From: Stegostoma tigrinum
Lineage: Eukaryota
Reading direction: 5' to 3'
Assembly (NCBI RefSeq): GCF_030684315.1
Contig: NC_081396.1
Span: forward strand, 4,030,001 to 4,094,000
Length of the DNA: 64,000 nucleotides
The notes below the pieces were generated by a model. It was not told the DNA's origin. It was given only the letters and a program-made list of their open reading frames with translations, and made no database searches. A program made the position numbers and the translations under genes. Below, in pieces: positions 10,544-62,339 of the stretch (positions are counted from its first letter, which is position 1; every line of letters starts with the position of its first letter).

Positions 10544-10591
10544 CTAAAGTCACCGTCACCATGGTTCCTTGTCCCCAGTAATCGAAGCAGT
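10544..10591 (-). CDS. IGHJ: JH segment, CFDYWGQGTMVTVTL
   Basis: WGQG motif; RSS immediately 5'; phase-1 donor GTAAGA at 10543. Confidence 0.97.
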
Positions 10592-10630
10592 CACAATGTT
10601 ACATTCCCTGGACGGGGTCACACAATAACT
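10592..10630 (+). other. JH 5' recombination signal sequence (23-bp spacer)
   Basis: CACAATG 10592-10598 + 23 nt + ACAATAACT 10622-10630, read on the plus strand. Confidence 0.92.
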
Positions 10631-10725
10631 GGCTCTGCACAAAACAAACAAAAACTTTCACTATTTTAAATATTCATACCCAGAGGCAAAATAAAATCAC
10701 GACAGACCTTCATCACGTTATAATT

Positions 10726-10733
10726 ATGCAAAT
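10726..10733 (+). promoter_or_regulatory. Ig octamer motif in the D2-J interval
   Basis: Perfect ATGCAAAT about 95 bp upstream of the J RSS; function not demonstrable from sequence. Confidence 0.35.
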
Positions 10734-10957
10734 AGATTCGACTCATTCTTGATATGTGATTCTAATGTTTTAGACTTCAAAGAATAACATACGAAGTGAT
10801 TGTCAATATCACCAACTACTTATCAATAATTATCGCTGATTTGACAAATTTAACCTTGATATTCAGGTAATACCCCACAGAAGTGATACGACAACACGCG
10901 TTCGGATGGATTGTAAATGTGAACACTGACACAGTTTCGAACAATTCGAGAGCAGCG

Positions 10958-11026
10958 TGTTTTTGTGCTGATCATAATTGCTGTGCAACCCAGTATGTCA
11001 CTGTGAGATGCATTATATCAAATACA
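10958..11026 (-). other. IGHD: D2 segment (coding 10986-10998, ACATACTGGGTTG) with 12/12 RSS
   Basis: Plus strand CACTGTG 10999-11005 + 12 + TCAAATACA. Minus strand CACAGCA 10985-10979 + 12 + ACAAAAACA. Frames TYWV / HTGL / ILG. Confidence 0.92.
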
Positions 11027-11336
11027 GTGATGGACTGCATACTGTAAAATACAGATACCTAATTGCTTTGACTGCAAACAAAAAAAGGTCCAGGCTTCTT
11101 TAATGATGATGCAGTGCAAAAGTTTAGCTTTTACTTCCCATTGTATTTTTATAGATGCTTGGAATATAATTTAATGTTTGGTGTCGGTTTAATGTGTCCA
11201 TCGACATGAAGAAAGTAGAACAATTTTATATATGTCTACAAATGAGCTTTACTGGAAAGCATTTTAAAGAAGTCTTACATTATTTATTGCTCCTGTTCTG
11301 ACCCTAATTGCCAATATGAACAAAACAGTTGTCAGT

Positions 11337-11416
11337 AGTTTCTGAATGACAATGTCGGTGTGAACATCACTGTGATCCCAGGTAATATCACAGTGATGTA
11401 AGCCCACACATATTCT
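11337..11416 (-). other. IGHD: D1 segment (coding 11375-11388, ATATTACCTGGGAT) with 5' 12-RSS and 3' 22-RSS
   Basis: Plus strand CACAGTG 11389-11395 + 12 + ACATATTCT. Minus strand CACAGTG 11374-11368 + 22 + TCAGAAACT. All three frames open (ILPG / YYLG / ITWD). Confidence 0.92.
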
Positions 11417-11773
11417 GCCCTCATTGCTTGATATATATTTTGTCTCGAATTCGATGTGAAATAAAGATTTAGTACTGATCATTGTGGAAAGAGTGCCAAA
11501 GCCTGTATAACACAATTAGCAGAGATTTCCTGAGGTGGCAGATATATTTATGGACAAGTCTGTAATTGATGGAACTATTTTCAGGACACAGGGCATGACG
11601 AAAACTTTACCCTATTTTGTTGGATGGTTTGTTAGTATTAATGGTTCATTTCCTCTGTGAAAGTTTGTAAGAAACAGTTTGAAGTCGACTTCATATTATA
11701 GTTGTGAATGTCACATCGAACACAAGTACTGACCGTCAATTTGCAGTGGAATCTACAAAGTGTCTCCTCGACC

Positions 11774-11812
11774 TGCTCTTGTGTGTGCCTACTCGCTGTT
11801 CCTAGCTCTGTG
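11774..11812 (-). other. VH 3' recombination signal sequence (23-bp spacer)
   Basis: CACAGAG (11812-11806) + 23 nt + ACAAGAGCA (11782-11774). Confidence 0.88.
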
Positions 11813-12117
11813 GTCTCTCGCACAGTAATAGATGGCGGTGTCTTCGATCTTCAGGCTCTTCATATCCAATGTGAAAACGTTGTTTGAAGTGTCTTTGGAC
11901 GCAGTAAATCGATCTTTAATCGCTGGCGCATAGTACTTGTTTGATGAACTATAGTAGCTAACCAGGCACTCCAGACCCTGTCCAGGAACCTGGCGGACCC
12001 AAGCCATCCATGTGCTGCCAAGATTGAACCCGCTGGTTTCACAGGTCAGTTTCAGTGAGCCTCCAGGTTGGCTGTCTCCTGCCTCCGGTTGAATCAAAGT
12101 GACCTCTGAATGAACAC
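11813..12117 (-). CDS. IGHV: Immunoglobulin heavy-chain V segment (shark IgM-type VH), open frame
   Basis: Acceptor ttttctttttgaag, then (S)[101 protein letters not shown]. Canonical Cys, Trp and YYC present; followed directly by an RSS. Confidence 0.97.
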
Positions 12118-12240: not shown

Positions 12241-12289
12241 TGGAGAAGAAAGTAAGAAACAAACTGAGAAAAATCATTGACGGAGTCAT
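12241..12289 (-). CDS. IGHV: IgH leader (signal peptide) exon, MTPSMIFLSLFLTFFS
   Basis: ATG at 12289-12287; 49-nt hydrophobic exon ending in a phase-1 donor GTAAGT at 12240; 123-nt intron to the V exon. Confidence 0.93.
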
Positions 12290-61580: not shown

Positions 61581-61718
61581 CTGAAAAAGAGTGATGAGGT
61601 AATGATTTAGAAATTTATGATCAGGGCATTCAGGTTTTAACTTTAATTCAATGACACACATTGAGATTTCACAAGCCACAATGGTCTGGTGAAGTGTGAA
61701 TGATCTCATTTTTCTCAC

Positions 61719-61846
61719 CTTCACCAGCGTGATGGCAGCACTGTAGAAAATGCCCATGAAGAACAACATGTTGAATGTAGAAGCAGTCGTCCAGATGTTG
61801 CCATTATCATCCTCGAGGTCTTCAATCCAAATATGATCTCTCGAAT
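61719..61846 (-). CDS. IgH transmembrane exon TM1 (IgM-like) of an upstream cluster
   Basis: Acceptor tgttcatag; (D)SRDHIWIEDLEDDNGNIWTTASTFNMLFFMGIFYSAAITLVK; donor GTGAGA at 61718. Acidic spacer plus the WTTASTF...YS...TLVK membrane-Ig motif. Confidence 0.93.
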
Positions 61847-62339
61847 CTATGAACATCAAATCGAGATAACGAATTTTGAATGTTCACTGATCCAACCTGA
61901 TATATCTTTATCGAAATAATGCAATCAGGATTCGTGACACTTTCTTCAAGCCGTGAGGTTGTCCTCTTTTTTTTATTGATCTCTGTCTATTACAGTGTTA
62001 GGTACTGTCAGCAATAACATGCTAACACTAATTGCACATGTTCTTCCTTTGCGATCCATGTCTGAACATTTTGATGCATTGCATCACTTAAACTGTTCTT
62101 GGAGAATACAATCATTGTTGTCTTTCTAGGAATGCTGATTGGGGATGCTTATACTAATTCCATCATTATATTTTCAATACAGGCATTGGCTACTGTTAAG
62201 TTGAAAATTGTGGTCATCACTGGGTGAGAGTTCAAATGTGCTTACTCATCATATTTATTCAGATGTGATCAGATGCTTGACAAATCAAGAGCAAAAATTG
62301 GATCCAGAATAAAATATTCTTTTTTTTGGAATGGTCCGT

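Follow-up and report, generated by a model that had tools for sequence, protein, structure and literature searches.

A germline Cys47 and a J-encoded Cys in one expressed IgM heavy-chain cluster of Stegostoma tigrinum: a possible, optional V-J disulfide

Introduction

A germline Cys at position 47 of a conventional VH is known from cattle: bovine IGHV1-10 carries the W47C change, is expressed and is mostly joined to a CDR3 with an odd Cys (Haakenson et al. 2019, PMC7366855). Among 10,869 chains, odd Cys were counted in V and D in 6338 cases and in V only in 1288 (PMC7366855). The corresponding model places the V Cys at best 8.4 Å from CDR H3 and 1.8 Å from CDR L3, these closest approaches being stated for three Cys jointly; the bond is inferred, not solved, and bonds between heavy and light chains (H-L) are raised by the same authors (PMC7366855). 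Intra-CDR3 bonds have been solved in the cattle Fabs B4 and B13 (PMC6677920).

The nurse shark IgM miniloci of Groups 1-5 are arranged as V-D1-D2-J-C, with about 1.2 kb from V to J, four CH domains and secretory and transmembrane (TM) ends (Malecek et al. 2008, PMC2435157), and rearrangement within the cluster is the rule (PMC2435157). Additional disulfides are described in two other systems: IgNAR type I has FR2-CDR3 and CDR3-FR4 bonds (PMC11641339), and the germline V Cys of camelid VHH often bonds CDR3 (PMC10439903). A survey reports FW2-HCDR3 bonds in VHH and none in conventional VH (PMC11045209). A pair made of Cys47 and a J Cys is not among the natural framework-only Cys pairs listed in PMC10641266, and PMC8692893, PMC9248892 and PMC5931798 gave nothing on it. 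The literature search, whose scope excluded the subscription papers on nurse-shark germline genes, gave no report of this pair in shark IgM.

By every feature open to test, the cluster described here is a shark IgM cluster. It shares with the nurse shark miniloci the order of segments, the V-to-J distance, the four CH domains and both kinds of ends; it differs from them by Cys47, present in none of the 13 nurse-shark mu proteins examined and in none of the 17 other V of the locus.

An earlier note on this DNA had taken IgNAR type I and camelid VHH as analogies for its unusual Cys, but the closest precedent is bovine IGHV1-10, which fits better: in both cases a conventional expressed VH has a germline Cys47, for which a pairing with a CDR3 Cys is proposed and is not absolute. 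The partner is different, i.e., in cattle it comes from several D segments, at varying positions, in a translocon locus, whereas in the shark it is fixed in the only J of the cluster, four residues before the J Trp, where it is either kept or trimmed. IgNAR type I is similar in that it too combines, in a shark V domain, an FR2 Cys of germline origin (at about 35) with a J-derived Cys. However, it has no light chain, its framework Cys each bond a separate D-derived CDR3 Cys and not one another, and the present cluster has mu constant exons and a CH1. Camelid VHH also has a germline V Cys, the extra Cys being at 33, 45 or 50, but it has no light chain and has hydrophilic FR2 hallmarks, whereas V37, G44 and L45 in the FR2 of the cluster V are conventional. 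A heavy-chain-only antibody of the IgNAR or VHH kind is rejected on the basis of the spliced CH1, the conventional FR2 and the mu-type C exons.

Results

Organization of the cluster

The window, i.e., the whole stretch of 64,000 nucleotides analysed, is G000:C55:4030001-4094000. The cluster (L001) lies on its minus strand and consists of a leader, one V, two D and one J, with a 12/23-compatible set of RSS. Its parts are given below in window positions; X5 and X6 are two of the four samples of the second study considered further on.

12241..12289, minus strand: leader exon, ATG at 12289; its splice to the V exon is found as a joint in X5 and X6
11813..12117, minus strand: IgM VH exon, open, with canonical Cys22, Trp36 and second Cys
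11966..11968, minus strand: non-canonical Cys47 codon TGC (Trp TGG in paralogs), giving GLEC
11774..11812, minus strand: V 23-RSS, heptamer CACAGAG, nonamer ACAAGAGCA, slightly degenerate; used, V joints being observed
11389..11416, minus strand: D1 5' 12-RSS, nonamer degenerate; V-to-D1 joint 11389-11815 in X5
11375..11388, minus strand: D1, 14 nt, different from the D1 of paralogs; forward frames without Cys
10986..10998, minus strand: D2, 13 nt, 12/12 RSS; forward frames without Cys
10592..10630, minus strand: J 23-RSS
10544..10591, minus strand: single JH CFDYWGQGTMVTVTL, spliced to the cluster's own CH1
10587..10589, minus strand: non-canonical J Cys codon TGC (Tyr TAC in most paralogs)

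The earlier note had described a TGC codon at 11968-11966 replacing the FR2 Trp, and a Cys at 10589-10587 in the only JH of the cluster. Both descriptions are accurate: the V exon is open, and the whole window contains one J motif and one J-type 23-RSS. Sequential position 47 of this V is also Kabat 47. The JH starts with AC-TGC-TTC-GAT-TAC-TGG (minus strand), which puts its Cys four residues ahead of the J Trp, i.e., at IMGT 114. The further statement that neither D encodes Cys holds for the three forward frames but not for D2 read inverted, which has one Cys; moreover, TAC-TG of D2 plus one added pyrimidine can also yield Cys.

The C exons extend beyond the start of the window, CH1 beginning ~600 bases past it. 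In this region (G000:C55:4029409-4019306), CH1-CH4, the secretory tail and the TM exon are all open; the C exons are 69-93% identical to nurse shark mu, and those located for the cluster do not include the short last TM exon. CH1 retains its N-terminal Cys, as in the paralogs and in nurse shark, and this Cys presumably has a role in the H-L bond. The cluster is placed inside an IgH/TCR-delta complex (cf. PMC12227049). The V nonamer (window 11774-11782) and the D1 5' nonamer (11408-11416) are farther from the consensus than in any paralog read. Two further exons were also noticed: a mu transmembrane exon at window 61713-61847 (minus strand), likely of the upstream L012 cluster, and an extra degenerate copy of a Cmu4/secretory exon at G000:C55:3897727-3898002, downstream of the TM exon of the L007 cluster.

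Reality of the two Cys codons

One study provides two DNA-like runs, X1 and X2, from two samples, either of which may be the source of the assembly. Their contigs span both TGC codons with 0 other letters. The depth of the contigs at the codons (17.9 and 20.7 against 21.2 for a unique intronic contig; 13.9 and 11.6 against 10.6) is close to the unique depth and, no other letter being found, fits homozygosity. The Cys47 codon is spanned in the second study as well: the pieces from X5, X7 and X8 are exact, and that from X6 differs by two letters, neither of them listed for this codon. X5 joints contain the J Cys codon, as does a part of the X6 depth at 10588. Both TGC codons are thus confirmed as real, as the check on read data proposed earlier was meant to establish, and base-call error is ruled out since the two DNA samples match exactly.

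Rearrangement, splicing and expression

None of X5-X8 is on record as RNA, and they are taken as transcript-derived only from their spliced and rearranged contigs. Loose ends at 12117 in contigs of X6, X7 and X8 are evidence of the leader-V splice, and those at 10544 in X5, X6 and X8 match the start of the cluster's own CH1, i.e., a J-CH1 splice. The cluster V is expressed in these four samples. Joints were assigned to it at 99% likeness and had to reach 11819, a base private to the L001 V. Every one of the 11 somatic joints whose insert length is known is in frame; with a one-third chance per joint, P is about 6e-6.

The cluster is an intact, spliced, productively rearranged and expressed shark IgM heavy-chain gene. 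This bears out the earlier view that V, D and J rearrange within the cluster. A pseudogene, or a gene never rearranged, could be suspected from the degenerate RSS nonamers, but it is ruled out by the joints (V-D1 as well as V-D-J) and by the open C exons. In X5, contigs of the DNA between D1 and D2 (window 11166-11389) were also found with a V-D1 joint, D2 being unjoined; they correspond to a transcript of a partly rearranged allele.

Fate of the J Cys during joining

Retention of the J Cys was counted on the top rows of one run, X5: 15 rows plus one in a second table, from which the V-D1 row and a row ending at 11820 (not V-specific) were dropped, leaving 14 cluster-specific V-J joints. The J Cys codon is kept in 8/14 and cut in 6/14; in one of the latter, D2 and one added base restore a Cys at that position (read by eye), and five have neither. 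The 11 known inserts, also read by eye, comprise five that keep the J Cys, the one that rebuilds a Cys and five without any CDR3 Cys. A second Cys, two residues upstream in CDR3, occurs in one of the five that keep it; five of the six Cys-bearing joints thus have their sole CDR3 Cys at the J position. Two further joints with the cluster's D1 are in frame by eye, one with J untrimmed and one trimmed and without Cys.

The three deepest contigs of the 11 (974, 585 and 433) have no CDR3 Cys, nor has the trimmed D1-bearing joint (depth 1524), and the fraction of summed depth with Cys is 0.40 for the 11 joints; contig depth is, however, a poor guide to expression. Retention of the J Cys (8/14) does not differ significantly from that of the equivalent Tyr in a small nurse-shark baseline (3/12 cDNAs; Fisher p = 0.13); when the rebuilt Cys is counted (9/14), p = 0.06. 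The Cys pair is therefore frequent but optional. As the earlier note had supposed, the two Cys are brought together in a single domain, here in about half of the joints sampled. Its reading is weakened by the frequent trimming of the J Cys in productive joints and by a retention not significantly above the nurse-shark baseline.

Paralogs and probability of co-occurrence

The genome search scored the best 150 of 221 candidates, with 34 matches listed and 30 examined. Among the matches listed, 18 IgM-type V are localized at C55 3.07-4.85 Mb; Cys47 is found in 1/18 of these V and the J Cys in 1/15 readable J, both in the same cluster. This survey, which had been advised at the outset, thus places both Cys in L001 only, and the supposed IgM "lineage" finds no support, no relative carrying both Cys having been found. 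L001 itself sits on a long branch: its V has 10 private sites, its D1 is its own and its RSS nonamers are degenerate.

A stray V Cys is found in 3/17 V: at 47 in L001, at 59 in L012, which has a stop codon, and in L014 at the position of the invariant Trp36, thereby lost. The Cys-creating share of possible substitutions is about 3% in V and 4% in J. With the empirical rates, the probability that V and J each hold a stray Cys in at least one of 15 clusters is about 0.16; we estimate that this value is lowered several-fold when the V Cys must in addition face CDR3, while a genome scan offers many chances. The co-occurrence exceeds chance only weakly.

Elsewhere, an FR2 pattern match on 284 proteins of other organisms gave Cys47 in 4/298 V domains (1/35 for chondrichthyan ones), and none of these 4 came with a readable J. 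The catshark Scyliorhinus torazame has an IgM V with Trp47 changed to Cys (P0003, GCB81270.1). In a fast tree this GLEC V groups with other carcharhiniform V, away from L001; shared ancestry is not supported, the origin of its Cys47 is apparently independent, and W47C thus recurs.

Some other genes of the family deserve mention. L014 (G000:C55:4350240-4350533) is an otherwise open IgM V in which Cys in place of Trp36 gives MYCIRQ; its RSS, D and J look normal and its product is probably non-folding. L008 and L009 (C55:4454257 and 4558394) are ~104 kb apart; their V proteins are identical, as are their D and their J, and their flanks nearly so, i.e., either a very recent duplication or an assembly duplicate. 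Germline-joined IgM clusters are: (i) L006, D1-D2; (ii) L015, V-D-D; (iii) L012, V-D1 and D2-J, with a stop; (iv) L018, VDJ with a stop at the J Trp; (v) L019 (on C54), VDJ, one base out of frame.

Geometry and light-chain partners

Trp47 takes part in the VH:VL interface, and the order of CDR H3 is coupled to it (PMC4968113), and the C-alpha distance in disulfides is 4.2-6.6 Å (PMC3039938). Structure prediction of a natural shark mu chain without alignment had a mean pLDDT of 33 and was unusable, and no solved Cys47 antibody was found among the PDB sequence alignments shown. When the CDR3 base is kinked, the Phe of Phe-Asp lies against position 47, and the residue that precedes it is directed towards VL 46/49. 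Known Fv structures thus suggest that the J position faces the light chain. Since it is the Phe, and not the preceding residue, that packs on 47, a Cys47-J bond would need a non-canonical CDR3 base; such a rearranged base is perhaps allowed by the loss of Trp47.

For the light chains, the best 150 of 986 V-set candidates were scored and 40 of the 150 hits examined, one locus being unparsed. In the 11 V examined that we take to be light-chain-like, CDR L3, FR2 and the surroundings of 46-49 are free of germline Cys; FR3 has a stray Cys in one of them. At G000:C60 7.85-8.48 Mb, L051-L056 form a family of single-exon joined domains of the VJ type with a short CDR2 region.

Discussion

The explanation we favour, with slightly less than even confidence, is that of an optional disulfide between Cys47 and the J Cys in an intact, expressed shark IgM. 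With the J Cys kept or rebuilt, a chain would be likely to have an extra disulfide from framework 2 to the CDR3 base; with it trimmed, a chain would carry a tolerated free Cys47. The two thiols would come within reach of one another, the second Cys being able to cap the first. In a shark cluster, V and J form a unit in inheritance and in rearrangement, which may be why the J change was kept. The bond would fix the CDR3 base in the space vacated by Trp47.

The points in favour of this disulfide are: (i) both Cys are in one cluster, whose gene is complete and productive; (ii) the J Cys is kept in 8/14 joints and a Cys is rebuilt in one; (iii) cattle provide a precedent for Cys47; (iv) rearrangement is within the cluster; (v) the 11 light-chain-like V examined offer no partner Cys in CDR L3 or FR2. 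The points against it are: (i) 5/11 joints have no CDR3 Cys and retention gives p = 0.13; (ii) stray Cys are common; (iii) the two CDR3 Cys of one joint could pair mutually; (iv) the cattle model leaves 8.4 Å to CDR H3 but 1.8 Å to CDR L3, and the bond would need a non-canonical CDR3 base; (v) one survey reports FW2-HCDR3 bonds in VHH and none in conventional VH.

A more ambitious version, in which the two Cys would have evolved together in cis as a hard-wired V-to-J disulfide, and J trimming by two to five bases would switch B cells between a locked and a free CDR3 base, i.e., two structurally distinct kinds of antibody from a single gene, is unlikely in our opinion. What is new with respect to cattle is the J-encoded partner fixed in cis.

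Coincidence is nearly as credible as the optional disulfide. Two independent single-base changes, TGG to TGC and TAC to TGC, would have drifted to high frequency in a divergent paralog, with thiols free or capped by small molecules and without any particular role. The long branch of L001 agrees with this, as do the stray Cys of other V, even in place of an invariant Trp, the chance of about 0.16 for a double somewhere, the independent recurrence of Cys47 and the many productive joints without any CDR3 Cys. However, the other two V with stray Cys are a gene with a stop codon and a gene without Trp36, whereas L001 is expressed in four samples; its V Cys is at the very position where cattle have V-CDR3 Cys coupling (PMC7366855), and in one joint a Cys is restored at the J position.

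An effect on the light chain seems improbable. It would consist either in one or two Cys bonds to this chain (J Cys to VL 46/49, Cys47 to CDR L3) or mainly in a restriction of pairing by the loss of Trp47. An engineered H100b-L49 disulfide, for which the literature search gave no confirmation, counts for it, together with the interface location of Trp47, the proximity of such a Cys to CDR L3 in the cattle model and the H-L bonds raised there, but no Cys was found at the relevant positions in any (0/11) of the light-chain-like V examined. Very improbable is a different pairing, the germline pair being incidental, in which the J Cys mostly bonds a junction-made or mutated CDR3 Cys, and Cys47 a CDR3 Cys higher in the loop: 1/11 joints has two CDR3 Cys and intra-CDR3 bonds are solved in cattle, but the forward frames of the D supply no Cys and 5/6 Cys-bearing joints have theirs at the J position only.

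If no bond forms, the modest interest of the cluster is to show that an expressed shark IgM can do without the interface Trp47. An optional Cys47-J disulfide, if it does form, would give a conventional antibody with light chains a germline V-J disulfide, and would be a natural case of V-J co-adaptation arising from cluster genes that rearrange only within themselves. It would also represent a convergence with cattle at position 47 and a candidate new means of stiffening the CDR3 base.
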